Position numbers and translations under genes: made by a program. From a bacterium (GTDB taxonomy: Bacteria; UBA8248): a DNA stretch of 64,000 bases. The stretch is taken from positions 512,001 to 576,000 of the forward strand of contig CBDBEV010000001.1 in NCBI GenBank assembly GCA_965204535.1, in the 5' to 3' direction. The notes beneath the pieces are model-generated. The model saw only the letters and a program-made list of their open reading frames with translations. It had not been told where the DNA came from and did not search any database. This document shows, piece after piece, positions 34,819 through 64,000 of the stretch (its first letter is position 1; each line of letters opens with the position of its first letter).

Positions 34819-35691
34819 TTACCGGTTGAGGACTTGCTTCCAGTTTCTGCGCAAGGGTCGTAGCCAGATGTCCTTTTTCGGTTGGGCTCGTTTCGTGTAC
34901 CTGTCGTAGCGTCCACGCCCCTGGGTCATACCGACGTGGACCCACCCCGAAGCCCTGTAGACGGCGCCGGTGTAGCGCGGCGTCTCGACGAAGGTCTCGA
35001 CGAGGACGGGGGTCGTGCCATAGCGCTCGGTCCAGTCTTCGGGCAGGCGCCTGCGGATGATGGCGAGGAGATGGGAACCGAGGTTGGGGATCCTGATCCA
35101 GGGCAGGATGAGGAACCTCGGGTTGTCGACCACGAGGGGGAGGTTCTTCTCGCGCAACTGCGGCGTCCAGCCGATGAAGGCGTCGCGCGGGGCGAGCTTC
35201 CACGCGGCGGTGGAGAAGCCGAGCATGGCGAGGGGCCTGCCGTCGCGGTCGTGGACGGCGTAGCGCATCTGGGCGCCGACGAGGGTCTTGTAACCGAGGT
35301 AGTGGTAGCGGGCGACGAACTCGTTCCAGAGCCTGCCCTCGCGGGTTCCGCGCACGGCGACGCGCATATCGAGGGGGCGGACCTCATCGAGGGTCTCAGG
35401 CGCCGGGATGAGGGGAGGTTCGGTGTCGGGTCCGAAGACGACCGGGCCGGGCCGGTTCTGCCGCCACTTCGGAGGCGGCAGCGTGATCAGGCCGTCCTTG
35501 TGCATGGCGAGCATGGTCACCCGGGCCATCATGTCCTTGAGCCCGCCGTCGGGCTTGTACCAGCCGATGCGGCGGCAGAACTCCTTCGACAGCGCGTGGC
35601 GGTTGAGCGCAGGAGGACCTGCGATCAGCGCGCGCAGCAGCGCCATCTCTTCTGTCGTGAAGTCGCGTCCGTAGTAGCGGCACCCGGTCAC
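34819..35691 (-). CDS. DUF4338 (DruA-like) domain protein
   Basis: LWNEFVARYHYLGY, AAWKLAPRDAFIGW, RFLILPW...NLGSHLL, LVETFVE, YRASGW..VG.TQGRGR. GTG start directly after tnpC. Confidence 0.85.
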   Translation of the reverse strand: MTGCRYYGRDFTTEEMALLRALIAGPPALNRHALSKEFCRRIGWYKPDGGLKDMMARVTMLAMHKDGLITLPPPKWRQNRPGPVVFGPDTEPPLIPAPETLDEVRPLDMRVAVRGTREGRLWNEFVARYHYLGYKTLVGAQMRYAVHDRDGRPLAMLGFSTAAWKLAPRDAFIGWTPQLREKNLPLVVDNPRFLILPWIRIPNLGSHLLAIIRRRLPEDWTERYGTTPVLVETFVETPRYTGAVYRASGWVHVGMTQGRGRYDRYTKRAQPKKDIWLRPLRRNWKQVLNR

Positions 35692-35695
35692 GGCG

Positions 35696-38050: not shown

Positions 38051-38180
38051 GCCGACATCATTAGCACATGTCGAATCGCGTTACCAGTCGCCCGGGAAAA
38101 TTCTATCCGATGGAGGCGATGCGCCCGGCGCCGGGTCCATCACGGCCCGCCCGAACGCTTACGAACGTCCTGGAAGCGAC

Positions 38181-41500: not shown

Positions 41501-44500
41501 GCTCGCCTCGCCGCCCCAGCGCGGCGCCAGCGTCACGCCCGCCGTCCCCGCCGGCACCGACGCCCGGTAGAACGTCACCCCCGGCGCGAACGCCGGGCTC
41601 AGCTCCACCGCCCCCGAACCGGCCGTGAGCGCGAGCCCGCACAGCGGTCCCGCCCCGGCCTCGCAGGCCGGCCGGGCCAGCACCTGCGTCTCCGGCTCCT
41701 TCGCCGCGTCGCCCCGCACCACCGTCAGGGTGTACTTCCGCACCGCCGTCACCTTCGGCACCGACACCTCGATGATGACCGGGTTCTCGCCCTCCTTCAG
41801 CGGCACGTCGACCGCCGGCGTGCCGGAGTCCACCCGCTTCCCGTTCACCTTCACCGCCGCCGACGCGTACTTCACCGCCGGCTTCACCGTCACCCGCTCC
41901 ACCGCGAGCGGCACCCGCACCTCGTAGCTGCTGCTCTTCGCCTCGAGCGCCACCTCGCCCTGCGCCACCCGCTGCGCCGGGTCCGGCGAGGTCACCGTCA
42001 GCGCGCGCAGGTCCAGGCCCCCCGGCCCCGGCAGCGCCAGGTTCGGCGCCGTCAGCCGCGGCGCGTAGGAAGACGCGCGAAGCTCCAGGCGCGGCCCGCC
42101 CCCCCGCAGCACGCACAGCTTCGCCGTCGCCTCCCGCCCGCCGGGCGGGATCTCCACCCTCCCATACCCGGTGATGGGCGAGGGCAGGGTCCGGGCGGCG
42201 GCGGTCCCGCCGCACGCGCCCCACGACGCCGCCCCGACGCCATTGAGGCCGAGGTGCACCGTCATCCCCGGCGCGCTCGGCCGGTCGAGCCGCACGGTCA
42301 CCGTCACCGTGCCGCCCGCCGCCACGGCCTGCGGGTCCGCCTCCACGACGAGCGCCGTCGGCGGGTTCGGCCCCTGCACCCGCACCTTGACGCCCGCCGC
42401 CGTCAGCGCCGGGTCGTGGGTCCCCGCCGTCACCGTCATCGTCCGCCCCGCGCCCGCCGCGGTCGCGCACAGCTTCACCGTCGCCTCCCGCTCGCCGGCG
42501 GCAACCATGTCGGCCGTGCCGTGCTCCCAGGCGCAGTCCGGGCCCCAGCGCGCCGCGCCGCCGTCGCCCGCGGTGTCGAACCACACATCCATCGCCTTCA
42601 TCGCCGGGGCGTCCAGCCGCGCCGTCACCGTCACCGCGCCGCCATGCGCGAGGGCGACGGGGTCCACGCTCAGCGTCAGCGACGCCGGCGGCGCCGGCGC
42701 CCGCGGCGTGCCCGCGCCGGTGGACCAGCGAACGGGGGTCTCATGGGGATAGGCTAACGGACGCACCCGCACGTCGTAGGCCGTGCCGTTGGCCAGCCCC
42801 CCGATCGTGTACGCCGTGCCGGTAGCGTACAAGGTCTGGGGCACGCCATTGACAATCCGCGCGCGCCCGGGCGCCACCCAGCCGGTCGAGGGGTCGCCCG
42901 GCGTCGTCGCGTCCGCGTCCGGCGCCGAGGACACCTTCCACTGCACCTCGTAGCTATGGTTCGGCCCCCACGGCCTGTTCCACGTCAGCGCCAGCGACCC
43001 GTCGCCCGTCGCCACCGACAGCACCAGGCCCGCGCTCGGGCCGGCCGAGACCGGGGTCCTGCCCGGGGCGTCGTCGTCGGCGATCCTCACCGTCACCGAG
43101 TTCGGCGTGCCCGCCGACACCGACGAGGGCAGCGTGCCCAGCGACACCGTGAAGGTCTCGTCCTCGGTGTCGTCGTCCTGCGCCGTGGTGAGCGTGCCCG
43201 TGCCCGTCGTGGACCCGCCGGCAATCGCGATCGACGCGAGCGTGCCGATGTCGCCGGACTCCGCGCTGCCCAGGCTCACCGTCACCGGGATGGAGACGGC
43301 GCCCGTCAGCGCCGCCGACAGCGTCGCCGTCACGGTCACCGAAGACCCCTCCGCCACCGGGTTCGGCGCCGCCGACAGCGAGACCGCCGGGGTCGTGGCG
43401 GGCGGGGTCGTGCCCGAGGCCGCCCGCGTCACCGTCACGGTGTAGGCGACCTTCGTCGTGCCGTCCTGCGCCGTCACCTCGACCTTGATGGCGTTCGCGC
43501 CCTCCGAGAGCGCGATGGCCGTGCTCTCCGTGCCGCTGGTCACCGCCGAGAGGTTCGTCCCCTTGCCGACCTTGATCGAGGCGCCCGTGTGCGCCTTCGT
43601 CGGCGTCAGCTTCACGTGCGTGACGCCGTTGGCCACCGAGGCGGTGTAGGCGGTCGTGGACGCCGAGAAGGTCGACGGGCTCAGCGTCAGCGCAGTGAAG
43701 GTCGAGCCGTCCGTGCTGCTCTTCGCCGTCAGGGCGCTCAGGTTGGCGTTGGAGGACTGGGTGGACTTCTTGAGCACCACCAGGTAGTTGGTGCTCTTGC
43801 GCGCGTTGTTGTCTCGGATCTCCACCGACACCCAGGTATCCCCGCTGGCGGCCAGGGTCACCGTCTTCGACGTGCCCGAGGAGGCGAGCTTGGACCCCGC
43901 CTGGGTCAGGATGCTGTCGTAGTCCGGCGTCGTCGAGGCGACCTTCGTCTCGATGAAGTGGCCCTCGATCCAGGTGGGGGTGACCGAGGCGCTGGTGGCC
44001 GTGGGCGCCACGGTCCCGGTGTACATCGTCGTGCTCGTGGCGAAGGCCGGGCTCAGCGTGACCGCGCTGCCGCCCACCGTCAGCGACAGCCCGACCAGGC
44101 TGTCCGTGTTCGCCTCGTCGTCCCGGATGGTCACCGTCACCGAGTTCGGCGTGCCCGCCGACACCGACGAGGGCAGCGGCGTCCCCAGCGACACCGTGAA
44201 GGTCTCGTGGTCGGCGTCGGTGTCCTGCGCCGTGGTGATGGTGGCGCCGCCGAAGGTGAGCCCCCCGAGGACGGTGATGCTGGTCAGCGTGCCGATGTCG
44301 CCCGCCTCCGCCGAGCCCCGCGTCACCGTCACCGGGATGACCACGTCGCTGCCGAGCGCCGCGGACAGCGTCGCCACGATGGTCGCCGACGAGCCCTCCG
44401 CCACCACGTTGCTCTGGTCGACCGACAGCGAGACCGTCGGGGTCGCGGCGGGCGGGGTCGTGCCCGAGGCCGCCCGGGTCACGGTCACGGTATAGGTCCG

Positions 44501-49208: not shown

Positions 49209-49573
49209 AAACTGGTGATGGTCCGGGCCGGTGGTTCCGCGAACCGCCGCTAATCGTTATTATCAGAAGAGAAAGGGCCGACACCCCTCAAAGGGCTGCT
49301 TTGGTAGGGGTTGCTGGGGAACTGCTGCGACACGATTCCCGAGGCGCAGGCCAAGTCGGGGTGCCGGCTGCTTTCATAAAGCGCGAGCAGGGGCTGCCCG
49401 TTGTTCCCCCTCCCGGCTCGAGGACTCAAACTCACAACCGGGAGGGGTACTATTTTGCTCTCACGAAGGAAGCAACCAACGGACAACCCCCTTTTCGCTC
49501 TACTTGAGATTTGCTGCCCGCCCGGCCCCGGGGCTAAAGCCCCGGAAGCCATAGGCGTCATTGCGCTTCGCCG

Positions 49574-52279
49574 CTACTGCTCCAGGTACGTCCCGAAGCC
49601 GCCGATCAGGCTGTGGGTCACGTCGTCGGCCGTGTCGTCCGCCGTCCCCATGTCGAGGGTCCCGCTCACCCCGAAGGTGCCGATCACCGCGGTCGGGTAC
49701 TTCTTGGCAGCGTCGGCGTTCTCCGCCATCGCCTCGGAGAACCGGCCATGCCAGAACCCGTTCATCGGGTACTCCGCAGAGCTGTCGGTGGGGTCTACCG
49801 TCGGCGTGCCCATCCGGGTGTCGTAATACGTGAAACTCCGGCTGGTTGCGGAGTTCACCGCACCGTACGACAGGATGACCTCGCTCAGCTCCCCCGTCAG
49901 CCTTTCGCCGCCGGAGACGATCTCGTAGATCCTGCCCTCGACGGTGCCCAGTTCGGTAGCCGTGCCGAACTTCGCCGTCAGCTCCGCCTTGGCGTCGAAC
50001 GGCTGGACCGCCTCCTTCGCCCCGGTCATCCCGTGAAGCCCCGCGGCCGAACCCCGGTACGTCGCATTGCCGGTCAGAGCCGTTATGACACCATCGGCAA
50101 TCGTCGAACCGAAGGCGTTGCCGGACGCGAATGCGCCGAGGCGTTCGTCTTGGTTGTTCGCGGTGGAGCCGCCCAGATCCAACCAGTACCCGAAGACCAT
50201 GTAGTCGGGATCGCCCGCCTCCGGCACCGCAGCCGCAGAGCCGGTGACACGCCAGCCGCTGCCGAGCGACGTGATCGTCGCGGTTGCCGCCGCCCCGGTG
50301 CTCGTGTACGAGCAGTCGGCCGGCGCCGTGCAAGCGAAGGTGACGCCGGTGCCGCTGTAGGTGACCCCGTCCTTGGTGAATTTGCTCCCCGCGAGGGTCG
50401 TGATGGTGCCCGCGGTGCTGAGGTCGAACGTCCCCGACACCGTCCCCGAGGAAGCCTGAACGCCGCTGATGTTGCCCGCCTTCACCGCCGCCTTGCGCTT
50501 GGACGGATCGTAGTCGGTGTAGATGTGGACGGCCCGCGTGCCCTGGGTCAGCTCGACGCCGGTGAAGCGGCCGAGCGTCGGCAGGTCCCGCTGCGTCGCC
50601 TGTGCCGTCGTGACCGCCGGGTCCGGCGTCCTCAGGTGCTCGGCAGCGTACTTGCCGAAGCGGTACACGCGGTCCTTGCCGATCTTGTGCTCGATCCGGG
50701 CTCCATAGGCGTTGTTGCCGATCTGGTCGTTGTCGTTGGTGTTGTACTGCCAGAGGCCGTCAACCGAGTTGTCCCGAGTGCCCGTGCCGTCGGTATTCGG
50801 GGTAAGGGCCTTGGCCGCGCCGACGGTGACGTGGGTATCACGTTCCTCGTCACCGGCGTCCTCGATCAGGTTACGCACCAATGTGATGCGCGCCTTCTTC
50901 TCGGCGTCGGCCAGGCCCTGTCCGCTCGCGACCTTGAACAGTTCGAGCGCGTACATCGTGGACGCGGCGACCGCTGCCGTCGCCGCCGCCTTCGCTTCCA
51001 TGTACCTGGCATTCGCGCCGTCATCGCCGGTGTCCTTGGCCATGGCGGTGCGCTGCTGCATCTGCGCCTTGTCACGCTCCGCACGCGCAGTCTCGGCCGT
51101 CACGTCGTCGGCCTTCGAGGCCATGTACGCGGCCTCCGCGGCCCTCGCGGCAGTCTCGGCCGCCGCCGCCGCCGCTTCGGCAGCCGTCGCCGCCGCCTCC
51201 GCTTCCGTGGCCTTCTTGTCGGCCCCGGCGTAGTCCGTCCGCGCCATCTTGGCCTTGTTCGCGGCTTCACGCGCCTTCGTTGCCTCCGCCTGGGCCATAT
51301 CCGCCTTGGCGCGCGCCGAGTCGGCGTGCTCCATGGCGGCGTCCTTGGCCACCTTCGCCGCTTCCTGCGCCTGCTCGATGCGCAGCCGGTTGAGACCGGC
51401 AACCGTCACGCCGGCCTGACGGGCCAGTTCCTCCGCGTCCGCGAGCTTCATCTCCGCCTCGGCCTTCTTGCCCTCGGCGGCCTCCTTCTCGGCCTCCGCG
51501 TCGGCCGACGTCGTGTCCTCCTGCGCATTCTCGGAAGCCGTCTCGGCAGCCATCGCCGCCGCCTCGGCAGCCGTCGCCGCCTCGTCGGCGTCCATGTACG
51601 CCTCCGAATCGGCGCCCAGCATCTCCTTGACCTTGTTCGCCGCCGTGCGCGCCTTCGTCGCCGCCGTGCGCGCAGCCATCGCCGCTGTCGATGCCGCGGT
51701 CTTGGCCTCGGCCAGCTTCCCGGCCTCCTCGGCCGCGGCCGTCACATGACCGGCGAACGTCATGACGGCCGTGTTCGCGGCCATCGCCTTCGCCTTCTCG
51801 GCTTCGGCCTCCGCCTTCTTGGTTTCGGCGATGGCCTGCTGCCGCTTGGCCTCGGCAACGCCCGCTTCCGTCGCCTCCGCCGCCGCCGCGGCGTCGGACG
51901 CCGCCTTGGCCGCCTCGTAGGCCGCCTTGGCCGCCTCGTAGGCCGCCTTGGCGTCAGCCAGGCGATCCATCGCACGCGTGTAGTTGGGAACGTCGTTGTC
52001 CCGCTTGTCCTCAAGGTCGTCGAACGCGCTCTGCGCCGCATCGCGCTCTGCCATCGCCGCATCGCGCGCAGTCATCGCCGCCGCGGCCGCCGCGGCCGCC
52101 GCTTGCCGGGCCGCGCTCAACTGCTCCGCCAGGGTCGGGTCCGGGTCAACGACCGGCGGATCCGGGTCCGGCGCAGCAGCACCACCGCCGCCACCGCCGC
52201 AGCCCGCCAGCGTCAGCGCGAAGACCGCCGCCAGCGCGAAAGCGTAAAACTTGTTAATATACTTGTCTTTGAACATCAT
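49574..52279 (-). CDS. Surface lipoprotein with Ala-rich coiled-coil stalk and TbpB-like C-terminal barrel (copy A)
   Basis: Lipobox LAGC, Gly7 tether, ~400-aa Ala/Glu/Lys-rich helix, and C-terminal GNATYRGSAAG..AELTAKF..WHGRF..IGTFG..IGGFG. Confidence 0.85.
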   Translation of the reverse strand: MMFKDKYINKFYAFALAAVFALTLAGCGGGGGGAAAPDPDPPVVDPDPTLAEQLSAARQAAAAAAAAAMTARDAAMAERDAAQSAFDDLEDKRDNDVPNYTRAMDRLADAKAAYEAAKAAYEAAKAASDAAAAAEATEAGVAEAKRQQAIAETKKAEAEAEKAKAMAANTAVMTFAGHVTAAAEEAGKLAEAKTAASTAAMAARTAATKARTAANKVKEMLGADSEAYMDADEAATAAEAAAMAAETASENAQEDTTSADAEAEKEAAEGKKAEAEMKLADAEELARQAGVTVAGLNRLRIEQAQEAAKVAKDAAMEHADSARAKADMAQAEATKAREAANKAKMARTDYAGADKKATEAEAAATAAEAAAAAAETAARAAEAAYMASKADDVTAETARAERDKAQMQQRTAMAKDTGDDGANARYMEAKAAATAAVAASTMYALELFKVASGQGLADAEKKARITLVRNLIEDAGDEERDTHVTVGAAKALTPNTDGTGTRDNSVDGLWQYNTNDNDQIGNNAYGARIEHKIGKDRVYRFGKYAAEHLRTPDPAVTTAQATQRDLPTLGRFTGVELTQGTRAVHIYTDYDPSKRKAAVKAGNISGVQASSGTVSGTFDLSTAGTITTLAGSKFTKDGVTYSGTGVTFACTAPADCSYTSTGAAATATITSLGSGWRVTGSAAAVPEAGDPDYMVFGYWLDLGGSTANNQDERLGAFASGNAFGSTIADGVITALTGNATYRGSAAGLHGMTGAKEAVQPFDAKAELTAKFGTATELGTVEGRIYEIVSGGERLTGELSEVILSYGAVNSATSRSFTYYDTRMGTPTVDPTDSSAEYPMNGFWHGRFSEAMAENADAAKKYPTAVIGTFGVSGTLDMGTADDTADDVTHSLIGGFGTYLEQ

Positions 52280-52350
52280 TTAGTGAGTCCTCCTCCTAGC
52301 AATAACCAAGGGACAAAACGACGGGCGGCCCCCGCGAGCCCTTCTTCTCC

Positions 52351-52377
52351 GCCCCGCCCCCCTCCAGGGGGCGGGGC
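52351..52377 (-). terminator. Intergenic hairpin just after the copy B stop (terminator or mRNA-stabilising stem)
   Basis: 11-bp stem GCCCCGCCCCC/GGGGGCGGGGC with no U-tract. Confidence 0.4.
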
Positions 52378-52387
52378 CGTCTTGCCG

Positions 52388-55093
52388 CTACTGCTCCAGG
52401 TGCGTCCCGAAGGCGCCGATCAGGCTGTGGGTCACGTCGTCGGCCGTGTCGTCCGCCGTCCCCATGTCGAGGGTCCCGCTCACCCCGAAGGTGCCGATCA
52501 CCGCGGTCGGGTACTTCTTGGCAGCGTCGGCGTTCTCCGCCATCGCCTCGGAGAACCGGCCATGCCAGAACCCGTTCATCGGGTACTCCGCAGAGCTGTC
52601 GGTGGGGTCTACCGTCGGCGTGCCCATCCGGGTGTCGTAATACGTGAAACTCCGGCTGGTTGCGGAGTTCACCGCACCGTACGACAGGATGACCTCGCTC
52701 AGCTCCCCCGTCAGCCTTTCGCCGCCGGAGACGATCTCGTAGATCCTGCCCTCGACGGTGCCCAGTTCGGTAGCCGTGCCGAACTTCGCCGTCAGCTCCG
52801 CCTTGGCGTCGAACGGCTGGACCGCCTCCTTCGCCCCGGTCATCCCGTGAAGCCCCGCGGCCGAACCCCGGTACGTCGCATTGCCGGTCAGAGCCGTTAT
52901 GACACCATCGGCAATCGTCGAACCGAAGGCGTTGCCGGACGCGAATGCGCCGAGGCGTTCGTCTTGGTTGTTCGCGGTGGAGCCGCCCAGATCCAACCAG
53001 TACCCGAAGACCATGTAGTCGGGATCGCCCGCCTCCGGCACCGCAGCCGCAGAGCCGGTGACACGCCAGCCGCTGCCGAGCGACGTGATCGTCGCGGTTG
53101 CCGCCGCCCCGGTGCTCGTGTACGAGCAGTCGGCCGGCGCCGTGCAAGCGAAGGTGACGCCGGTGCCGCTGTAGGTGACCCCGTCCTTGGTGAATTTGCT
53201 CCCCGCGAGGGTCGTGATGGTGCCCGCGGTGCTGAGGTCGAACGTCCCCGACACCGTCCCCGAGGAAGCCTGAACGCCGCTGATGTTGCCCGCCTTCACC
53301 GCCGCCTTGCGCTTGGACGGATCGTAGTCGGTGTAGATGTGGACGGCCCGCGTGCCCTGGGTCAGCTCGACGCCGGTGAAGCGGCCGAGCGTCGGCAGGT
53401 CCCGCTGCGTCGCCTGTGCCGTCGTGACCGCCGGGTCCGGCGTCCTCAGGTGCTCGGCAGCGTACTTGCCGAAGCGGTACACGCGGTCCTTGCCGATCTT
53501 GTGCTCGATCCGGGCTCCATAGGCGTTGTTGCCGATCTGGTCGTTGTCGTTGGTGTTGTACTGCCAGAGGCCGTCAACCGAGTTGTCCCGAGTGCCCGTG
53601 CCGTCGGTATTCGGGGTAAGGGCCTTGGCCGCGCCGACGGTGACGTGGGTATCACGTTCCTCGTCACCGGCGTCCTCGATCAGGTTACGCACCAATGTGA
53701 TGCGCGCCTTCTTCTCGGCGTCGGCCAGGCCCTGTCCGCTCGCGACCTTGAACAGTTCGAGCGCGTACATCGTGGACGCGGCGACCGCTGCCGTCGCCGC
53801 CGCCTTCGCTTCCATGTACCTGGCATTCGCGCCGTCATCGCCGGTGTCCTTGGCCATGGCGGTGCGCTGCTGCATCTGCGCCTTGTCACGCTCCGCACGC
53901 GCAGTCTCGGCCGTCACGTCGTCGGCCTTCGAGGCCATGTACGCGGCCTCCGCGGCCCTCGCGGCAGTCTCGGCCGCCGCCGCCGCCGCTTCGGCAGCCG
54001 TCGCCGCCGCCTCCGCTTCCGTGGCCTTCTTGTCGGCCCCGGCGTAGTCCGTCCGCGCCATCTTGGCCTTGTTCGCGGCTTCACGCGCCTTCGTTGCCTC
54101 CGCCTGGGCCATATCCGCCTTGGCGCGCGCCGAGTCGGCGTGCTCCATGGCGGCGTCCTTGGCCACCTTCGCCGCTTCCTGCGCCTGCTCGATGCGCAGC
54201 CGGTTGAGACCGGCAACCGTCACGCCGGCCTGACGGGCCAGTTCCTCCGCGTCCGCGAGCTTCATCTCCGCCTCGGCCTTCTTGCCCTCGGCGGCCTCCT
54301 TCTCGGCCTCCGCGTCGGCCGACGTCGTGTCCTCCTGCGCATTCTCGGAAGCCGTCTCGGCAGCCATCGCCGCCGCCTCGGCAGCCGTCGCCGCCTCGTC
54401 GGCGTCCATGTACGCCTCCGAATCGGCGCCCAGCATCTCCTTGACCTTGTTCGCCGCCGTGCGCGCCTTCGTCGCCGCCGTGCGCGCAGCCATCGCCGCT
54501 GTCGATGCCGCGGTCTTGGCCTCGGCCAGCTTCCCGGCCTCCTCGGCCGCGGCCGTCACATGACCGGCGAACGTCATGACGGCCGTGTTCGCGGCCATCG
54601 CCTTCGCCTTCTCGGCTTCGGCCTCCGCCTTCTTGGTTTCGGCGATGGCCTGCTGCCGCTTGGCCTCGGCAACGCCCGCTTCCGTCGCCTCCGCCGCCGC
54701 CGCGGCGTCGGACGCCGCCTTGGCCGCCTCGTAGGCCGCCTTGGCCGCCTCGTAGGCCGCCTTGGCGTCAGCCAGGCGATCCATCGCACGCGTGTAGTTG
54801 GGAACGTCGTTGTCCCGCTTGTCCTCAAGGTCGTCGAACGCGCTCTGCGCCGCATCGCGCTCTGCCATCGCCGCATCGCGCGCAGTCATCGCCGCCGCGG
54901 CCGCCGCGGCCGCCGCTTGCCGGGCCGCGCTCAACTGCTCCGCCAGGGTCGGGTCCGGGTCAACGACCGGCGGATCCGGGTCCGGCGCAGCAGCACCACC
55001 GCCGCCACCGCCGCAGCCCGCCAGCGTCAGCGCGAAGACCGCCGCCAGCGCGAAAGCGTAAAACTTGTTAATATACTTGTCTTTGAACATCAT
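52388..55093 (-). CDS. Surface lipoprotein (copy B)
   Basis: Identical to copy A except the C-terminus, GAFGTHLEQ versus GGFGTYLEQ. AGGAGG RBS. Confidence 0.85.
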   Translation of the reverse strand: MMFKDKYINKFYAFALAAVFALTLAGCGGGGGGAAAPDPDPPVVDPDPTLAEQLSAARQAAAAAAAAAMTARDAAMAERDAAQSAFDDLEDKRDNDVPNYTRAMDRLADAKAAYEAAKAAYEAAKAASDAAAAAEATEAGVAEAKRQQAIAETKKAEAEAEKAKAMAANTAVMTFAGHVTAAAEEAGKLAEAKTAASTAAMAARTAATKARTAANKVKEMLGADSEAYMDADEAATAAEAAAMAAETASENAQEDTTSADAEAEKEAAEGKKAEAEMKLADAEELARQAGVTVAGLNRLRIEQAQEAAKVAKDAAMEHADSARAKADMAQAEATKAREAANKAKMARTDYAGADKKATEAEAAATAAEAAAAAAETAARAAEAAYMASKADDVTAETARAERDKAQMQQRTAMAKDTGDDGANARYMEAKAAATAAVAASTMYALELFKVASGQGLADAEKKARITLVRNLIEDAGDEERDTHVTVGAAKALTPNTDGTGTRDNSVDGLWQYNTNDNDQIGNNAYGARIEHKIGKDRVYRFGKYAAEHLRTPDPAVTTAQATQRDLPTLGRFTGVELTQGTRAVHIYTDYDPSKRKAAVKAGNISGVQASSGTVSGTFDLSTAGTITTLAGSKFTKDGVTYSGTGVTFACTAPADCSYTSTGAAATATITSLGSGWRVTGSAAAVPEAGDPDYMVFGYWLDLGGSTANNQDERLGAFASGNAFGSTIADGVITALTGNATYRGSAAGLHGMTGAKEAVQPFDAKAELTAKFGTATELGTVEGRIYEIVSGGERLTGELSEVILSYGAVNSATSRSFTYYDTRMGTPTVDPTDSSAEYPMNGFWHGRFSEAMAENADAAKKYPTAVIGTFGVSGTLDMGTADDTADDVTHSLIGAFGTHLEQ

Positions 55094-55351
55094 TTAGCGA
55101 GTCCTCCTGAATACACAGTAGAAAAAAGGATTTTCAGTGAATTTCCGCCTTTCTCCGATTAACCTCCTTTCGTCAGCTTTCATTTCGGGCCTTCACAAAC
55201 TGGTGATTCGTATTTTCGGCCGCCTGAAACGCGGCGGACTTGAACCCTTTCATGGTCCGGGCCGGCAGTTCCGCGAGACACATGTTCCTGCGGCATGCGC
55301 CCGCCTTTCACTGCCTCCAAAGGCGATCCGACTCCCACCCGGCCTTGCCCG

Positions 55352-55539
55352 CCGTTAATCACTATTATCAGACAGTACAATACCTCTCAAGGCCATGTCA
55401 AGCGCAATTCCGGGGTCCCCGGAGGGGTTTCGGGCGCCGTTTTGCGCCTTTTTTCGCTCATTTGCGGCCCATATGCGCCCCGAAACGCCTCTCCCGGCGG
55501 AAAGCGGGGCTTATGAAATCCGATAATAGTGATTATCGG
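55352..55539. promoter_or_regulatory. Leftward sigma70 promoter flanked by inverted dif/lox-like sites (candidate invertible promoter)
   Basis: Sites 55352-55372 and 55519-55539 are inverted copies (19/21 identical) with GATAA-TAGTGA-TTA(T/A)CGG architecture. On the minus strand, TTGACA(55401-55396)-N18-TACTGT(55377-55372). Confidence 0.6.
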
Positions 55540-55617
55540 ATGTTAATCATCGTAAAGATGTGGTAAAAAAACCGATTCGGGCGGGCGATTCCTGGTCGTC
55601 CGCCTTATATATGTTGC

Positions 55618-56652
55618 ATGGAATCGGGACGGCAACTCCACGAACGTGAATCGCCGCCGGAACTTCAGGGCGCCGGCCGAACGACAGATCACGGAGAACC
55701 ATGGGCGAAACCCGCGGCGCCGGGGAGACGCTCCCCCCTGGAAAAACCCGACGAGAGTCACTCACCGCACCCCGGTTCGTTCCGGGCGTCGGCTGATCTG
55801 GTGCGCGCCTCGATCGCCGGGAACACGCGCCGCGCCTACGAGGCGGCGCTGCGCGGCTTCGAGGAATCGGGGCGCCCCGAGACCGACGCCGGGGTGGCGG
55901 CCTACCTCACGGGGCTCTACGGGAAGGGCCGCTCGGCGGCCTGCGCCTCGATGGCGGTCGCGGCGCTGCGGTTCCGGGCGAGGCTGGGCGGCCGCTCCTC
56001 CCCGGTGGGTCCTTCGGCGCTGCGCGCCCTGGCGGGCTTCAGGCGTCTGGGCTCGGAGCGGGGCCGGGGCCCGGTGGCCGGGGTGCGCTGGGAGGAGGCG
56101 GACCTCGCGGCGGCGCTGGCCGAGGGGACGGGGACCCTGGGCGGGCTGCGCGACGCCGCGGTCGTGGCGGTGGCGAGCGACGCCCTGCTGCGGGTGTCGG
56201 AGGTCGCGGCGCTCGACGTCGCGGACGTGGACCTCGGGGAGCAGACGGTGCGGATACGGCGCTCCAAGACGGACCAGGAGGGTGTGGGCGTCGTGCAGTA
56301 CCTCGGAGAACCGACCGTGGCGCGCGTAGAGGCCTGGCTTCTGGGCGCAGGCCTGACGAAGGGGCCGCTCTTCCGGGGCGTGTACAAGGGGGGACGGCTT
56401 CGGCCCGGGCGCCTGACGGACAGGAGCATCCGGAGCATCATCGCGCGGTGGGGGAAGGCCGCGGGCGCCGAGGGGCGCGTGAGCGGCCACAGCCTCCGGG
56501 TGGGGGGCGCGCAGAGCCTGGCCTCGGCGGGGGCGTCGCTGGTCGAGATGCAGCTCGCCGGGCGCTGGCAGTCGCCGGCCATGCCGGGACGCTACGCGCA
56601 GGGACAACTCGCGAAACAGGGCGCCGTGGCGAGGCTGCGATACGGCCTGTGA
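55618..56652 (+). CDS. Cre-like tyrosine recombinase
   Basis: NTRRAY, LRD...LLRVSEV (R), RSKTDQ (K), SGHSLRVG (HxxR), GRW (W), RY (Y). The catalytic set is complete. Confidence 0.92.
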   Translation: MESGRQLHERESPPELQGAGRTTDHGEPWAKPAAPGRRSPLEKPDESHSPHPGSFRASADLVRASIAGNTRRAYEAALRGFEESGRPETDAGVAAYLTGLYGKGRSAACASMAVAALRFRARLGGRSSPVGPSALRALAGFRRLGSERGRGPVAGVRWEEADLAAALAEGTGTLGGLRDAAVVAVASDALLRVSEVAALDVADVDLGEQTVRIRRSKTDQEGVGVVQYLGEPTVARVEAWLLGAGLTKGPLFRGVYKGGRLRPGRLTDRSIRSIIARWGKAAGAEGRVSGHSLRVGGAQSLASAGASLVEMQLAGRWQSPAMPGRYAQGQLAKQGAVARLRYGL

Positions 56653-56695: not shown

Positions 56696-57397
56696 CTACC
56701 GCCTCTTCTTTCTCCGGGCGGCTCTCTCCCCGGACGTGGAAGTCCACCTGCGGGCGGAGGCCCACTTCTCGAGATCTTCGAGCAGGTAGCGCACCCGGTA
56801 TCCGGTGCGAAGAAAATCCGGCCCCTCTCCACTCACGCGGTAGCGCTCCAGCGTCTTGGGCGAGAGGTTGAGCCAGGCGGCCGCCTCCCGCGTGTTCAGG
56901 TGGTTCTCCCCCGCGCGCTCATCGACGTCTTCTGCGGCGTCCCACGTCCCGTCGAACGGGTCGGGCAAGTGCGCGAGCCTCTCGCGTATGGCGCGGACCT
57001 CCTCTCGCGTCGCGTTGGCCGCCATCCAGGCGCGCACCCGGTCGAAGGTCTTGAGATACGGCGAGGCGCCCCGGCGCAGCCTCCCCACGAAGGAGGGGTT
57101 CCCCACGGCCTCCTCGCCCAGGATCGAGACCTTGGTCCCGCTCACCGCGAGGAACGCCTCGACCTCGGCCCGCAGGAGCGGTCCCAGGGGCGGATACCCC
57201 ATGAACGCCAGCACCCGGTCCGCCGTGTCGACCCGCAGGGGCCGCCCCCGGGCGTACAGTCCCACGAAGCCGGGAACCCCCAGCGCGCCCACCCCGAAGC
57301 GCCGCGCGCTCATCCCCCGGCGCGCGCGCCAGAGCGCAATGCTCCGGCGCAGCCGCTCGTCCAGCGGGGCGCCGGTATCGTCGTCGAAGGCGGTCAT
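56696..57397 (-). CDS. DNA-binding protein: two tandem HTH-like modules plus a C-terminal excisionase-type (HTH_17) domain
   Basis: Internal repeat (GMSARRFG..ALG.PGFV...TADRV / GTKVSILG..AVGNPSFV...TFDRV) and LNTREAAAWLNLSPKTLERYRVSGEGP. Confidence 0.75.
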   Translation of the reverse strand: MTAFDDDTGAPLDERLRRSIALWRARRGMSARRFGVGALGVPGFVGLYARGRPLRVDTADRVLAFMGYPPLGPLLRAEVEAFLAVSGTKVSILGEEAVGNPSFVGRLRRGASPYLKTFDRVRAWMAANATREEVRAIRERLAHLPDPFDGTWDAAEDVDERAGENHLNTREAAAWLNLSPKTLERYRVSGEGPDFLRTGYRVRYLLEDLEKWASARRWTSTSGERAARRKKRR

Positions 57398-57597: not shown

Positions 57598-57783
57598 TCA
57601 CACCGCGGCGCCCTGTTTCGCGAGTCGTCGCTGCGAATGGCGCTCCGGCATGACCGGCGATTGGCGGCGCCCGGCGAGTTGCATCTCGACCGGAGAAGCC
57701 CCTGCCGCGGCAAGGCGCTGCGCGCTGCCCGTCCGCCGGATGTGTCCGCCGCCCCGACCTTCCACGCCCGCGTCCGTTCGCAC
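57598..57783 (-). pseudogene. Degenerate 3' fragment of the Cre-like recombinase
   Basis: AGVEGRGGGHIRRTGSAQRLAAAGASPVEMQLAGRRQSPVMPERHSQRRLAKQGA aligns with the recombinase C-terminus. The catalytic W and Y are lost. Confidence 0.85.
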
Positions 57784-58162: not shown

Positions 58163-58396
58163 ATGCGCATGAACGAGACTGACAGGAACTACCTGAGCAC
58201 CCGGCAGGCGGCGGAGTGGCTGGGCCTCTCGCCGAGGACGCTGGACCGCTACCGCGTGACCGGCGAGGGACCCGTCTTCCACCGCTTCGGCTCCCGGGTG
58301 CGCTACCTGCTCGCGGATCTGGAGGCGTGGGCCAAGTCGCGGCGGCGGGCGTCGACGTCGGACGACGGAGTCGCCGCAGGGAGGATGACGCGATGA
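58163..58396 (+). CDS. Excisionase-like HTH_17 DNA-binding protein
   Basis: YLSTRQAAEWLGLSPRTLDRYRVTGEGPVFHRFGSRVRY. AAGGAG RBS; first gene of the tra operon. Confidence 0.85.
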   Translation: MRMNETDRNYLSTRQAAEWLGLSPRTLDRYRVTGEGPVFHRFGSRVRYLLADLEAWAKSRRRASTSDDGVAAGRMTR

Positions 58397-58689
58397 AGGG
58401 ATTCTTCTGGAGCAGGCACGTCCTCGCCGCGCTCCTCTGGGCGCTGTGGGGATCCGGCGCCGCCTGGGCGACGTCGGACACGACGTTCGCGGGTCCGCTC
58501 GGGACGGTGACCGGGATCGTCTCGGGCACGGGCGGACAGCTGGCTGCCGCGCTCGCGGTAGGCGCGGCGCTCGTGGGTTCGGTGCTCCGCTTCAACGCGG
58601 CCCAACTCGCGGGCGCAGTCGGCGTGGGCATCGCGGCGGGCGCCGGGACAGGCGTCGTCACCGGTCTGGTCGGAACGGCGATCGTATGA
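58393..58689 (+). CDS. traA: Conjugative pilin (TraA-like)
   Basis: Signal peptide plus two hydrophobic helices, directly upstream of traL. Confidence 0.65.
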   Translation: MKGFFWSRHVLAALLWALWGSGAAWATSDTTFAGPLGTVTGIVSGTGGQLAAALAVGAALVGSVLRFNAAQLAGAVGVGIAAGAGTGVVTGLVGTAIV

Positions 58690-58698
58690 GGAGGGCGA

Positions 58699-58992
58699 AT
58701 GAGCGATCAGGCGAAACACGCCATCCCCTCTCGCTTGGACGACCCGGAGCGCTGGCTGTTCTGGACCCTGGACGAGGCGGCGGCGCTGCTGGGACCGGCG
58801 CTCCTGGGACTGGCGGCGAACGCCTTCCTGACGGGGCTCTTGGCCGGTCTCGCGGGCTGGGCATTGCTGCGCCGCGCGAAGCGGGGCGGCGGGGCGGACG
58901 TGGCGATCTGTGCGCTCTACTGGTTCCTGCCCGGCTTCGCGCTCGGGCTCAGGGGCGCGCCGCCGAGCCACCTGCGCCGCTTCATCGGATGA
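58699..58992 (+). CDS. traL: Conjugal transfer protein TraL
   Basis: IPSRLDDPERWLFWTLDE, LYWFLP, PPSHLRRFIG. Confidence 0.9.
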   Translation: MSDQAKHAIPSRLDDPERWLFWTLDEAAALLGPALLGLAANAFLTGLLAGLAGWALLRRAKRGGGADVAICALYWFLPGFALGLRGAPPSHLRRFIG

Positions 58993-59008
58993 GGAGGCTC
59001 CAGGGGAG

Positions 59009-59566
59009 ATGAAACGCGAACTGATGGAAGCCGAGCGCAGGCGCGTCCGGGACGGGCGCGCGGCGCTGGCGATACTTCTTGGCCTCTCGCTCCTGGCCAA
59101 CCTGGGACTGAGCTTGGGCCTCGCCTCTGTGGAGCGCATGACGGTGCTGGTGCCCGCGGTGGCGGGGCCGGCGTGGGAGGTCGGCGGCGGGCGGACGGGG
59201 ACCCGCTACCTCGAGGACATGGGGCGGACCGTGGCGGTGACGCTGCTGACGCTCACGCCCGAGAACGCGGAACACGCCCGCGAGGCGGCGGCGCGGCTCT
59301 CTCATGCCTCCGCGCGCGGCGCGGTCGGCGCCTGGGTCGCGGCCGAGGCCGGTCGCATGGCGCGGCGCGACCTCTCGACGGCGTTCTACCCCGGGCGGAT
59401 CGAGGCGGACCCCGGGAGGCTGACGGTCGTCGTGGGCGGAGAGCTCGCGACCTGGGTGGGGCGCGAGCCGGTCTCGCGCGAGCGGAAGCGCTACCGGCTC
59501 GTCTTCCGCGTGGACGCGGGCCGGATCGGCCTGCTTCGCTTCGAGGAACTGGAGGAGAATAAATGA
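59009..59566 (+). CDS. traE: Conjugal transfer protein TraE
   Basis: One TM segment, TVLVP, YLEDM, LTLTPEN, STAFYP. Lies between traL and traK. Confidence 0.85.
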   Translation: MKRELMEAERRRVRDGRAALAILLGLSLLANLGLSLGLASVERMTVLVPAVAGPAWEVGGGRTGTRYLEDMGRTVAVTLLTLTPENAEHAREAAARLSHASARGAVGAWVAAEAGRMARRDLSTAFYPGRIEADPGRLTVVVGGELATWVGREPVSRERKRYRLVFRVDAGRIGLLRFEELEENK

Positions 59567-60306
59567 CGCAATTGACGAGAAGAGGGGACGCCATCCCTCG
59601 CGCGCCGATTCAGGCGCTGCTCCTGGCCGCGATCTTTCTCTGGGCGGCGCCGGCGTCCGCGATGCAGATACTGGACGCCGCAGACCATGCGGAGCTCGTA
59701 GCCGAGATATCCGACCGCGCGGTGAGCCGGATAACGCTCGCCGGCGACCGGGTGGCGCGCGTGGTCCGGGGGCCGGACGGTTTCATGGTGGAACACGACA
59801 AGGCGCGCGGGGACCTCTACCTGCGTCCCCTGGAGGGCGCGAGCGGGGGCCGCGCGCCGGTGACGCTGTTCATCGGGACGGCGAAGGGCTTCACCTACCG
59901 GCTGACGCTGAGGACCGCCGCGCGCGATTCGGCGCAGATCATGATCCGGAACGCCGCCGCTACGCCACCGGGAAAAAACCTGAGGTCGGACAAGGGCCGC
60001 GTGGGAGCGATCGTGGCGCTGGTCCGCGCGGTCGTGCGGCGTAAAGTTCTCCCCGGCTATGTGATTCACACGGCATCCGGAACGCCGCGCCCAGAGGGCC
60101 TCGCGCTCCTGGAAACCTGGCGCGGGCGGCGGTTTATCGCGCACGTCTACGAGATGGGTTCCATTCCCGGGGACGACAACCAAACCATCATGGAAGGCCT
60201 CGCGCCGGGCGTAGCCGCGATCTGGGCGGGGAAGCCTGCGAGCGGTCCCTCGGACGGACGGCTCGTCGTGACCGTGCGCGAGGCCGGGCGTGGAGGGAGG
60301 CCGTGA
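59563..60306 (+). CDS. traK: Conjugal transfer protein TraK (F-type secretin-like)
   Basis: Signal peptide, IS..AVSRI, GDLYLRP, PVTLFIGT.KGFTYRL. Confidence 0.85.
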   Translation: MTQLTRRGDAIPRAPIQALLLAAIFLWAAPASAMQILDAADHAELVAEISDRAVSRITLAGDRVARVVRGPDGFMVEHDKARGDLYLRPLEGASGGRAPVTLFIGTAKGFTYRLTLRTAARDSAQIMIRNAAATPPGKNLRSDKGRVGAIVALVRAVVRRKVLPGYVIHTASGTPRPEGLALLETWRGRRFIAHVYEMGSIPGDDNQTIMEGLAPGVAAIWAGKPASGPSDGRLVVTVREAGRGGRP

Positions 60307-61529
60307 TGAGCGGTGCGGAAAAAACGACAATCGACCCCGAAAGCCGGAAGATCAGGAGCCGCCAATTGCTCCTGTTCTCGAGCCTGGCGGCTGCCGTGCT
60401 CTTCGCCTTCGCGGCCTGGTTCTCGGCGGGAGGCGGCGGGGCGCCGCCGCCACGCGGCGGGGTCCGGGCGGAACTCGCGGGCGCCGGGTCCGCGGAAGCC
60501 GTCTGGGTCAGGCGATCGGAATCCCGGATCGGCCAGATGGAGGCGCGGCTTCGCGATTTGGAGACGAAGAACCGGCGCTCGGAGGAGGAGAACGCGCGGC
60601 TCAGGGCGCGCCTCGCCAAGGGCGCGGCGGACGGGCGGATGGTGATCGACCGCCAGGCGGCGGCGATCGACGCGTTGCGCCAAAAACTCGACGCCCGCCC
60701 CGTCGCGCCCGTCTCGGCGAAGAAACCAGGGCCAAGTGCCGGGGGCAACAGCGCGCCGTCCGGCGGGAGAGCCTCATCGGCGAACCCGCCCATGATCCGG
60801 GAGTTTCATACCGGCACGGGAGTCGAGGGTACGAACGCCCCTGACAGGGGACCACGCCCCCTCTCCTCCTGGCTGCCCGCGGGCGCCTACGCGGAGGCGG
60901 TGGTGCTGGCGGGCGTGGACGCCTCGGCGGGCGTGTCCTCCCAGGGCGACCCGCGGCCCGTATTGTTTCGCCTCACGGGCAGGGCGCGGAGCGCCGCGGC
61001 GGAAGGCATAGCGATGGAAGCCGACGTCGAGGGGTGCACGCTGACGGGCGCCGCCTACGGCGATCTGTCGTCCGAGAAAGTCTACGTGCGGCTCCAGACC
61101 ATGACCTGCGCCGGGCTGGAACCCGGGACCGTGATCGAGACGAAGGTCTCGGGCTTCGTGGCGGGCGGCGGCAAGGCCGGCGTGCGGGGTCCGGTGGTGA
61201 GCCGCGAGGGAGCGCTCGTGGAGAAGGCCTTCCTCGCGGGCCTGGTATCGGGCGCGGGCGAGACCGCCGCCAACGTGCTCCAGGCGCCTGCCGGGACGGC
61301 GGGGGCCGAGAACGCGGCGAGCCTGGGCGATCTGGGACGCGCGGGGCTGGGCGCGGGCGCCGGGTCGGCCGGCCGCCGGGTGGCGGACTACCTGATCCGC
61401 CGGGCCGAGCAGTACCAGCCCGTTATCCAGCTGCAGACGGGAACGCGGGTCACGGTCGTGTTCATCGAGGGGACCCGGATCGACGGGCAGGATGAGAAGA
61501 AGAGCAACAACCACGGGAGGAATAAATGA
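60303..61529 (+). CDS. traB: Conjugal transfer protein TraB (VirB10-like)
   Basis: TM segment plus coiled coil, LPAGAY.EAVVL.GVDA, GDLSSEKVYVR, GVRGPVVSREG, RAEQYQPVI. Confidence 0.92.
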   Translation: MMSGAEKTTIDPESRKIRSRQLLLFSSLAAAVLFAFAAWFSAGGGGAPPPRGGVRAELAGAGSAEAVWVRRSESRIGQMEARLRDLETKNRRSEEENARLRARLAKGAADGRMVIDRQAAAIDALRQKLDARPVAPVSAKKPGPSAGGNSAPSGGRASSANPPMIREFHTGTGVEGTNAPDRGPRPLSSWLPAGAYAEAVVLAGVDASAGVSSQGDPRPVLFRLTGRARSAAAEGIAMEADVEGCTLTGAAYGDLSSEKVYVRLQTMTCAGLEPGTVIETKVSGFVAGGGKAGVRGPVVSREGALVEKAFLAGLVSGAGETAANVLQAPAGTAGAENAASLGDLGRAGLGAGAGSAGRRVADYLIRRAEQYQPVIQLQTGTRVTVVFIEGTRIDGQDEKKSNNHGRNK

Positions 61530-62023
61530 GAACGAATATCCAACAAAGAACCGGAATACCCTTGCGAGCGTTCGCCATGTTCCTTGGAGTCCTGCTGCTC
61601 ACGGGCTGCGCGGGAGGGAGCCACGTGGGCGAGAGCTGGCAATGCCCCATCGCGCAGGGCGTCGCCTGCCAGAGCGTATCCGAAGCGGACCCCGCTGTCG
61701 CGAGCGCAGGAGAAGACCTGAAAACCACAGGCCCCTCCCCGGGCCGTTCCGTTGAAACCACCGGAAGTACGGCCCTGAGCGACCTCCTCTCCTGGCTCAT
61801 GAAACTCTTTTCAGGCGAAGAGGCCGAGGAGGTGGCCACGGCAGAGCCGCTGATCGTTCCACAGCCGGCGGAAGAGACTCCGGTAGAGACGAACGAAAAC
61901 CTCCGCACGGAGGAGCGGATCGCGCGGATATGGATAGCGCCCTACGTGGACCGAGGCGGCGTCTATCGCGAAGGCCAATGGGTGCGGACGGTGATAAGGC
62001 CCGCGGGCTGGAGGCTGCCGTGA
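61526..62023 (+). CDS. traV: Conjugal transfer lipoprotein TraV
   Basis: Lipobox LTGC, WQCP..QGVACQSV, RIWIAPYVD. Confidence 0.9.
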   Translation: MRTNIQQRTGIPLRAFAMFLGVLLLTGCAGGSHVGESWQCPIAQGVACQSVSEADPAVASAGEDLKTTGPSPGRSVETTGSTALSDLLSWLMKLFSGEEAEEVATAEPLIVPQPAEETPVETNENLRTEERIARIWIAPYVDRGGVYREGQWVRTVIRPAGWRLP

Positions 62024-64000
62024 TGAAGCGCCTGCAGGATCTGTTCGGGGGAAACGAAGCGCTGAAACCCTGGACGCTCCCGGCCACGCCCGCCCCGCTC
62101 GTGGACCTGCTCCCCTGGCGGGCCTGGGACGAGTCGGGCGGGTTCTACGTGAACGCAGGCAACTGCGGCTTCGTCCTGGAACTCCCGCCCTTCGCCGGCG
62201 TGGACGAGGGAACCTTGGACGCCCTGGCGGGAACCCTGGCCGATTCGGCGCCCGATCGCTCGGTGGTGCAGGTGATCCACTGGACGAGCCCGCGCTACGG
62301 CGCCGCTATCGCGGAATGGGCCGGCCCGAGGGAGGCGGCGGGCGGGCTGCAGGCGGTGATGGCGAAACGCCGCGCGGCGCTGTTCACCGGCGCGGGCTGG
62401 CGTCCGCTCCACGCGGGCGGGCCGCCGTTCACCCTGAACGACTGTCGGGTGTTCCTCGCGGCCTGTCTGCCGGGGCGGCCGGGACCGGCGGCGGAGACCG
62501 CGCTCGGCGGCTTCCGCCGGGCGATCGAGGGCGCGCTCGCCTCGATCGGGACCTGGGCGCGGCGGATGGAGCCGGACGAATTGCTCTCGCTCGCGGCGGA
62601 ACTCACGGCCCCCGACCCTGAAGGGCTCCACGACGGCGGGCTCGAACGCCCCGGGAGGCGCTGGTCGCCGCGCGATCCGATTCACCTGCAATGCGCGGCG
62701 CCCGGACGCGCGATGAGCGTGGCGCCGGCGGGCCTCGTCTTCCACCATCCGGACGGGGCGGACGTGGCCGTGCGCGTGCTCTCCGCGCGCGCATACCCGG
62801 AGGTCTGGCCCGGCTGGCGGGGCAATGCGCTGATAGGCGACTTCTATCGCGACTTCCTGCAGCCCGGCGCGCCGGTCCTGACCGCGCTCACCGTGATGAT
62901 GGGCGAGGCGGCGGACGGGGAGCGCGCGTTCCTGAAATCCGCGCGCGCGACGCAGCAGGCGGGGACGGGGATCGCGCGCTACCTGCCGGGGCTGCCCGAG
63001 AAGGCGCGGGACTGGCGCTTCGTGACCGAGCGGCTGAAAGAGGGCGAACGCCTGGTCCGGGCGGGCTACGCCGTCTGCGTCTACGCGCCCTTGGACGCGA
63101 TAGACGAGGCCGAACAGGCGGTGCGCGCCATCTACCACGGACAGGGCTGGCGGCTGGGGGCGGAGCGTTACGCCCATCTCCCCGCCTGGCTCGCCTGCCT
63201 GCCCATGGCCGCGGCGGGCGGACTCGACGCCGACCTCGCCCGGATGGGCCGGATGAAGACGCTGCTCACCTCATCGGCCGTCAACCTCGCGCCCGTGCAC
63301 GGGGAGTGGCGCGGACAGAGAACGACTCCGGACGCGCCGCCGGCGCTCCTGCTCCTGGGGAGGCGCGGGCAGCCCGCCCCCTGGTCTCCTTTCGCGAACG
63401 AGGCGGGAAACTACAACGTGGCCGTGACGGGAAAGTCCGGCTCCGGCAAATCCGTGCTGATGCAGGAACTGGTCGCGGGCATCGCGGGCGCGGGAGGCGA
63501 GGCCGTCGTGATCGATGACGGACGATCCTTCCAGCACACGGCGGAAGCGCTGGGCGGCGCATTCATCGCCTTCGGCAAGGACCCCGCGCGGCTCAATCCC
63601 TTCGCCATGATCGATGCGGAAACGGCCGCGAGGGACGGCGACTACAGGGAGGAGTGCTTCGCCATGCTGGCCTCGGTCATAGGGCGCATGTGCCGGAGGC
63701 GCGGGCGGATTGACGACATCGAGGCGGCGCTTATTGATGAGGCCATCGCGCGCGCCTGGGAGGAAGCGGGCAACGACGCGGACCTGGAACTGGTGCAGAA
63801 AGGACTCGAGGCCGTAGGCGACAGGCGCGCATCCGACCTGGGCGTAGCGCTGGGACCCTGGTGTCCGGGCGGCGCGATGGGGCGGCTGTTCGAGGGGGGC
63901 GGGACGCCCGCGCTCGACGCCGCGCTCACCGTGTTCGAACTCGCGGAGCTCAAGGGCCGCGGCGACCTCCAGGGCGTCGTGCTCATGCTGGTCGTCTTCC
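62023..64000 (+). CDS. traC: Conjugal transfer ATPase TraC (VirB4-like), truncated by the window end
   Basis: MKRLQDLF...DLLPWRAWD..YVN..GFVLE, NYNVAVTGKSGSGKS (Walker A, ~63430), VIDDGRSF, LNPF. Confidence 0.92.
   Translation, partial: MKRLQDLFGGNEALKPWTLPATPAPLVDLLPWRAWDESGGFYVNAGNCGFVLELPPFAGVDEGTLDALAGTLADSAPDRSVVQVIHWTSPRYGAAIAEWAGPREAAGGLQAVMAKRRAALFTGAGWRPLHAGGPPFTLNDCRVFLAACLPGRPGPAAETALGGFRRAIEGALASIGTWARRMEPDELLSLAAELTAPDPEGLHDGGLERPGRRWSPRDPIHLQCAAPGRAMSVAPAGLVFHHPDGADVAVRVLSARAYPEVWPGWRGNALIGDFYRDFLQPGAPVLTALTVMMGEAADGERAFLKSARATQQAGTGIARYLPGLPEKARDWRFVTERLKEGERLVRAGYAVCVYAPLDAIDEAEQAVRAIYHGQGWRLGAERYAHLPAWLACLPMAAAGGLDADLARMGRMKTLLTSSAVNLAPVHGEWRGQRTTPDAPPALLLLGRRGQPAPWSPFANEAGNYNVAVTGKSGSGKSVLMQELVAGIAGAGGEAVVIDDGRSFQHTAEALGGAFIAFGKDPARLNPFAMIDAETAARDGDYREECFAMLASVIGRMCRRRGRIDDIEAALIDEAIARAWEEAGNDADLELVQKGLEAVGDRRASDLGVALGPWCPGGAMGRLFEGGGTPALDAALTVFELAELKGRGDLQGVVLMLVVF

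Follow-up and report, generated by a model that had tools for sequence, protein, structure and literature searches.

Spacer-matched, lox-like sites bound an invertible promoter-like segment beside predicted surface-lipoprotein genes in a likely sponge symbiont

Background

A pair of lipoprotein genes and a gene for a Cre-like tyrosine recombinase flank a short intergenic segment in the bacterial genome studied here, and the segment is bounded by two inverted sites: does it flip, and what would its flipping change? The window, i.e. the whole stretch of 64,000 nucleotides that was analysed, comprises positions 512001-576000 of contig C2 in a genome of 4.56 Mb assembled in two contigs (G000:C2:512001-576000). 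An initial annotation had proposed an invertible promoter that toggles between the lipoproteins and the recombinase itself, carried on a conjugative element, and had named repressor operators and a resolution site as alternatives. The host is likely a sponge symbiont of a Nitrospinota-like lineage. GTDB records labelled 'Nitrospinota bacterium' contain recombinases 75-89% identical to that of the window, together with the same site pairs, and the public DNA sample with the largest labelled share (0.31) is a sponge metagenome. A metagenome scan for the pattern returned 0 matches.

Results

The two sites are identical at 19/21 positions when 55519-55539 is compared with the reverse complement of 55352-55372. 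The left, cargo-side site (55345-55378; core CCGTTAA-TCACTA-TTATCAG at 55352-55371) and the right, recombinase-side site (55513-55546; core CCGATAA-TAGTGA-TTATCGG at 55520-55539) possess spacers, TCACTA (55359-55364) and TAGTGA (55527-55532), that are reverse complements of one another, and 168 bp separate the starts of the cores. This confirms the inverted pair with a shared asymmetric 6-bp spacer, about 170 bp apart, that had been noticed initially. The inverted repeats bound an intergenic segment of 162 bp (55365-55526), as in an inverton, and in the window this segment directs its putative promoter toward the lipoproteins (ON). Throughout the family, GATA adjoins the 8-bp A-N6-T core and a T occupies position -13 in 62/64 arms; the inner 6-7 bp of the arms are strongly conserved, the middle positions are variable, and the promoter-side arm deviates from a 13-bp palindrome. 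GATA and the T at -13 fit a lox-like site of 13-8-13 layout, the promoter-side arm of which has likely been overwritten by the -10 box.

A weight matrix derived from the paired sites scores >=20 in the 4.56-Mb genome only at paired sites, except for one match at window position 49247; weak matches (>=11) outside pairs number 32, versus 39.5 in locally shuffled genomes. The exception is a lone third site (49247-49266) with a different spacer, TCGTTA, which is in direct orientation with the left site and adjoins the remnants of a collapsed leader and of an adhesin gene. Given a matching spacer, both lipoprotein genes could be excised between this site and the left one.

On the minus strand of the segment, TTGACA (55401-55396) and TACTGT (55377-55372) are separated by 18 nt and point left, a predicted sigma-70 promoter (55372-55401, minus strand) whose -10 box extends into the outer portion of the adjoining site arm. 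TTGACA is invariant in 17/17 copies of this genome, and a TAnnnT hexamer stands 16-18 nt from it in 17/17 of these and in 41/41 copies of relatives with an exact TTGACA, which is absent from 3/44. A consensus promoter scan of 55000-55800 gave one candidate only, formed by two other hexamers within the segment, and the promoter reading rests on conservation instead: the TTGACA-N18-TACTGT that had been reported as facing the lipoprotein pair is present, and it is conserved across copies. The anti-promoter strand of the segment carries a terminator-like hairpin with a T run (55432-55459, plus strand), conserved in the alignment, which would face the cargo in the OFF orientation. Outside the left site, a conserved leader of 258 nt (55094-55351, minus strand), 85-95% identical at paralogous loci, includes the ribosome-binding site of the lipoprotein gene; outside the right site, a GC-rich hairpin of 12 bp whose T tail is weak (55579-55615, plus strand) precedes the recombinase ORF.

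The exact promoter-plus-site pattern occurs in 17 copies genome-wide, i.e. 16 intact pairs and one pair split at the break of contig C1. At 16/16 intact loci the two spacers are reverse complements of each other, and 13 different spacers occur among these loci; shuffling the spacers 100,000 times gave a mean of 1.37 matches and a maximum of 9, versus 16 observed, a comparison that overstates independence because paralogous loci are related. In relatives, 49 distinct places entered the count and 44 gave a pair: 43/44 pairs are spacer-matched, with 18 spacers, and the remaining pair has a 1-base mismatch. Four of the five places without a pair in this main count have matched pairs with variant promoters or arms, and one has none. 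Taken together, spacers match at 59/60 pairs of this genome and its relatives, and in both the inner arms move with the segment while the outer arms and the spacer sense remain with the flanks. Insulation between switches is incomplete because three spacers are each common to two loci of this genome. The core varies among loci yet stays identical between partners, as strand exchange by tyrosine recombinases requires; an operator would have no need of such matching.

The distribution of the switch follows that of the enzyme among 22 genomes of the same genus: 10/10 genomes with the exact promoter-site pattern possess a close recombinase homolog, the pattern occurs in 0/10 genomes without a homolog at E<=1e-40, and two further genomes have a homolog and no exact pattern. 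It was found in 0/19 other genomes of the family. A related switch with a matched 7-bp spacer lies about 590-760 nt ahead of a recombinase match in a genome of another family (G044, locus L016). Upstream of more distant homologs, inverted matched pairs were found at 0/60 loci (L083-L142), a search that may miss divergent systems because it assumed 7-bp arms, a distance of 1.1 kb and AT-rich sites; loci from G013, G020 and G022 likewise gave no pair under the pair criteria used. One switch, with a collagen-repeat protein as its cargo, is accompanied by two tandem recombinase genes (L164 and L165).

The conserved flanks, leader on one side and recombinase on the other, served as the reference for scoring orientation. 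Two of the 17 copies in this genome, the window and C2:2391340, face their cargo (ON) and 15/17 face away (OFF); 4/44 copies of relatives are ON, and 55/61 counted copies in total are OFF, counts that give no rate and stem from contigs, which drop rare variants. At the window locus itself, the ON form of the right site is seen in the reference and in a contig of run X1 (55483-55624, 0 differences, 36 nt inside the segment). Runs X4 and X5, from one other sample of another study, contain a 380-nt contig that joins 55370-55420 (+) to 55522-55680 (-), each of the two pieces showing 0 differences; over the longer stretch 55522-55850 the same flank has 1 difference. This contig is the window locus flipped and not a paralog, because the closest paralog differs from the window at 17 positions in 55521-56078, a stretch of spacer and flank, and at 6 others in the end with the promoter. 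Both orientations occur at this locus, between samples, and the initial proposal of an invertible segment bounded by lox-like sites is borne out by a flipped junction of the exact locus. Both junctions within one run were found in none of the 6 runs, a search of contigs only in which X1 may be the source sample. The flipped joint of X2 was not counted (its right flank has 11 differences and is partly paralog-like), the contig of X3 is the paralog and was not counted either, and no junction was found in X6.

The Cre-like recombinase ORF (55618-56652, plus strand) starts 79 bp to the right of the right site, its true start codon being uncertain, and encodes the catalytic residues R-K-H-R-W-Y, with a conserved core from about 55792. 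Its Pfam match is Phage_integrase. Among its solved relatives, 17/18 are Cre or Cre-derived, the best being Cre itself (E 1e-14), and 8/8 full-length paralogs of this genome retain R, K, H-x-x-R, W and Y, in keeping with the intact Cre-type recombinase that had been placed about 80 bp from the sites. An identity as XerC/XerD acting on dif was rejected: the profiles score 39 and 28 bits versus cut-offs of 335 and 330, and many paired sites exist instead of a single dif. The FimB/FimE-type profile NF007371 scores 22.9 bits versus 222. Eight of the 17 switches adjoin an intact recombinase; action in trans is likely because two have a truncated one and seven have none. The window's recombinase, or its seven paralogs, likely flips the segment.

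Elements that could separate switch and enzyme are frequent. A T7-8 run follows the recombinase-side site at 9/16 loci, with a clear hairpin ahead of it at seven. At the eight loci with an intact recombinase, the interval between site and gene contains a T7-8 run at 6/8, a clear hairpin at four and a fixed TATACT -10 box at 6/8; both loci with a truncated recombinase have CATACT. The window's class (2 loci) possesses the 12-bp hairpin with the weak tail in place of a T run, and there some read-through toward the recombinase could occur. Downstream of the enzyme lies an HTH_17 (excisionase-like) gene (56696-57397, minus strand), which is also found behind several paralogous recombinases. Beyond it, 57603-57775 is an inverted remnant of a recombinase 3' end (79%), and this too recurs at several paralogous loci.

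The window's switch faces the gene of a 901-aa lipoprotein (52388-55093, minus strand) with the lipobox LAGC, an Ala-rich helical stalk and a C-terminal barrel that is predicted to be TbpB/NHBA-like. A second copy of the gene (49574-52279, minus strand) has 2 differences in 2706 nt; the tandem copies (49574-55093) represent either a recent duplication behind the ON switch or an assembly artefact. The protein has no Pfam or NCBIfam match, the Pfam domain TbpB_B_D gave no match in the cargo, and sequence searches of Pfam and PDB with an alignment of 14 cargo proteins gave nothing useful. A single-sequence fold reached a pLDDT of 31.8. The C-terminal 280 residues, modelled at a mean pLDDT of 72, match the barrels of NHBA, the TbpB C-lobe, PmSLP and fHbp at E 2e-4 to 3e-3 (best 2.4e-4), with PsbO barrels interleaved at similar scores. 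A Slam (DUF560) translocon is encoded in the genome (PF04575, 104 bits versus a cut-off of 22), and Slam cargo share such a C-terminal barrel according to PMC8406197. The cargo is thus predicted, from these models, to be a Slam-type surface lipoprotein.

Thirteen switches of this genome face lipoprotein genes with the same signal peptide, one of them frameshifted; the other four face two proteins that end like the lipoproteins, one adhesin-like protein of 1253 aa and, in one case, no clear cargo. Identity between cargo proteins ranges from 27 to 90% (median 39%), and switches of relatives also face Calx-beta/cadherin-like and collagen-repeat proteins. The frameshift of the lipoprotein gene at C2:376567 lies in a Gly-rich run after the lipobox and may be a mutation, slippage or an assembly error. 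The last 382 residues of the window's lipoprotein (52391-53536) are 91-95% identical to those of proteins with quite different N-termini, on contigs of up to 9.4 Mb, which suggests that the C-terminal domain may recently have been transferred between organisms.

An F-type conjugation cluster with traL, traK, traB and traV starts to the right of the switch (58393-64000, plus strand) and runs on past the window with traU, N, F, H, G, a coupling protein and a TrwC relaxase. This agrees with the conjugative setting proposed for the switch, next to which lies a full F-type cluster with the relaxase and coupling protein of a conjugative element. The far end of the cluster yielded no matching site. 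Contig C1 (1.59 Mb) starts and finishes inside the spacer of one switch, which mixed orientations in the reads could cause. The cassette at this break is an insertion: its flanks lie 220 bp apart in genome G002, where the cassette is absent, and the insertion point is an array of REP-like palindromes. This spacing of the end flanks, together with loci only 93% alike, led us to discard an origin of C1 by circular excision from the locus with the same spacer on C2. REP-like palindromes have about 556 matches genome-wide, and most non-conjugative cassettes lie within 600 bp of one; such a repeat is found <600 bp from a cassette end in 11/17 cassettes, whereas 12% of random positions, in a control not limited to intergenic DNA, lie within 1 kb of one.

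The remainder of the window contains a multi-copy element of 3.4 kb (34750-38162) that carries genes for an IS66-family transposase and a DruA-domain protein, and of which at least 13 further copies exist, about 95% alike and some of them in tandem. At 38585-46969 lies the gene of an adhesin-like protein (2794 aa) that combines domains of cadherin-like, Calx-beta and fn3 type; an IS110 element lies upstream. The cumulative GC-skew minimum of C2 falls at C2:567494 (window 55494), inside the invertible segment, and likely results from the divergent gene blocks on either side.

Discussion

The explanation that we regard as very probable is that the segment flips by means of a Cre-like enzyme, its predicted promoter driving the surface-lipoprotein genes in one orientation (ON) and firing away from them in the other (OFF). 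Strand exchange would likely take place within the 6-bp spacer, which has to match between partners. Each switch would flip locally, and recombination across most loci would be suppressed since the spacers differ across the 17 loci. Transcripts of the OFF form would likely end at the hairpin beyond the right site. The recombinase, likely expressed from its own fixed promoter, would act in trans on switches without an enzyme. With ongoing switching in a population, the outcome would likely be phase variation of a family of lipoproteins and adhesin-like proteins that are presumably exposed at the surface.

The two orientations can also be read as fixed strain differences, left by a rare or historical site-specific inversion and not by frequent phase variation. 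Orientations that differ only between samples, and the 55/61 copies that are OFF, agree with such a history. It accounts poorly for eight intact recombinases in one genome, for spacers kept matched at 59/60 pairs and for a contig that begins and ends inside a spacer, as mixed orientations could cause, and we hold it to be quite improbable. A different matter is the self-resetting proposed initially, in which the OFF promoter transcribes the recombinase, which then flips the segment back ON; it would be compatible with flipping by the Cre-like enzyme as an extra feature. At every locus with a recombinase, the OFF promoter is indeed directed toward it, and the hairpin of the window's class has only a weak T tail. 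However, hairpins, T runs and a separate TATACT mostly intervene (T7-8 run and TATACT at 6/8 loci with an intact recombinase, a clear hairpin at four), an intact enzyme is missing at 9/17 switches, and the prevalence of OFF copies is the opposite of what a reset to ON would lead one to expect. Self-resetting is therefore doubtful, and we consider it unlikely.

The two alternatives named at the outset explain less. Plasmid dimer resolution is Cre's own task, and the sites might be lox/dif-like resolution or attachment sites of the conjugative element, with inversion as a by-product: a full F-type tra cluster starts at this locus, 6 kb to the left there is a lone third site, and one cassette is an insertion absent from G002. 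Yet resolution calls for a single site in each replicon and not for two inverted ones that enclose a conserved promoter facing a conserved leader, the far end of the tra cluster has no matching site, and seven switches lack an adjoining recombinase, all of which makes this reading very unlikely. Still harder to credit are palindromic repressor operators of Fur type. One site overlaps the predicted transcription start, and TbpB-like proteins, which the cargo is predicted to resemble, are often metal-regulated. An operator, however, has no need of a locus-variable central 6-mer that matches its inverted partner, it leaves the flipped junctions unexplained, and the motif is almost restricted to these loci; moreover, GATAAT-N4-ATTATC differs from the 7-1-7 spacing of a Fur box. 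Bound recombinase could nevertheless damp the promoter.

Beyond the flipping of single switches by the Cre-like enzyme, we put forward, tentatively and as a possibility rather than an expectation, a heterospecific-lox switchboard: mobile Cre-like cassettes, having multiplied to 16-17 per genome and each with its own spacer code, would be flipped independently by one family of enzymes without scrambling the chromosome, and about one Slam-type lipoprotein would be shown at a time, amounting to antigenic variation in a sponge symbiont. Lipoprotein switches are ON at 1/13 loci in this genome and at 1/7 in G002; a strict rule of always one ON fails, with 0/4 in G011 and 0/1 in G008.

These data are evidence, at the level of sequence and with one flipped junction recovered, that phase variation affects surface proteins at multiple loci in uncultured bacteria that likely live in sponges. 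A role of such variation in the defence of symbionts against phages or cells of the host thereby becomes testable. The data also point to a Cre-type enzyme that likely serves natively to invert promoters, with spacers that have diversified in nature and match between partners, and they supply genome engineering with a new recombinase and dozens of natural variants of the target. A literature search of titles and abstract openings, with subscription papers mostly outside its scope, found no paper that treats invertible promoters in Nitrospinota or in symbionts of sponges, and the main text of an inverton survey (PMC11602134) contains no mention of 'nitrospin' or 'sponge'.

Among known systems, XerCD/dif shares with the switches the dif core ATAA-N6-TTAT. 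In contrast to dif, the outer arms here are without conserved XerC/XerD motifs, the enzyme scores far below the cut-offs, and 35 sites exist versus one. The fimS element of Escherichia coli with FimB/FimE is, as described in PMC11868660, a short promoter-bearing segment beside a recombinase; the window resembles it in having the recombinase on one side of such a segment and a surface-structure gene on the other, and differs in a recombinase far below FimB/FimE-type cut-offs and in its many loci. Resemblance to Cre/loxP and other Cre-type systems (Dre, Vika, the YR series) extends to the sequence, a likely 13-8-13 layout, G-A-T-A next to the spacer and matched spacers; PMC10250229 gives this layout and motif for active Cre-type sites and states that spacers need to match. 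Unlike Cre/loxP, the present enzyme is likely a native promoter invertase rather than a resolvase, the outer half of the arms is degenerate, and one arm is overwritten by a -10 box.

The modules on Bacteroidales integrative and conjugative elements likewise combine, as described in PMC8748976, an invertase with a neighbouring invertible promoter, variable downstream cargo and a mostly OFF state (4/96 ON), features shared by the window's switch on its putative conjugative element. Those modules have their own promoter consensus and glycan or resistance cargo, whereas here a predicted sigma-70 promoter with TTGACA, in a switch of Cre-like type, occurs in 16-17 copies per genome, many of them off the conjugative element. 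In the mpl genes (P35 family) of Mycoplasma penetrans, as outlined in PMC8593674, a surface-lipoprotein family is phase-varied by a tyrosine recombinase that inverts promoter-like segments, and in these respects the present family is alike. It differs in its Gram-negative, predicted Slam-type lipoproteins and adhesin-like proteins, in loci scattered over the chromosome, and in eight Cre-like copies with lox-like dyad sites and locus-specific spacers. Invertible promoters as such are known; what is new is a Cre/lox-type, spacer-coded, multi-copy form with other cargo and in another host group.
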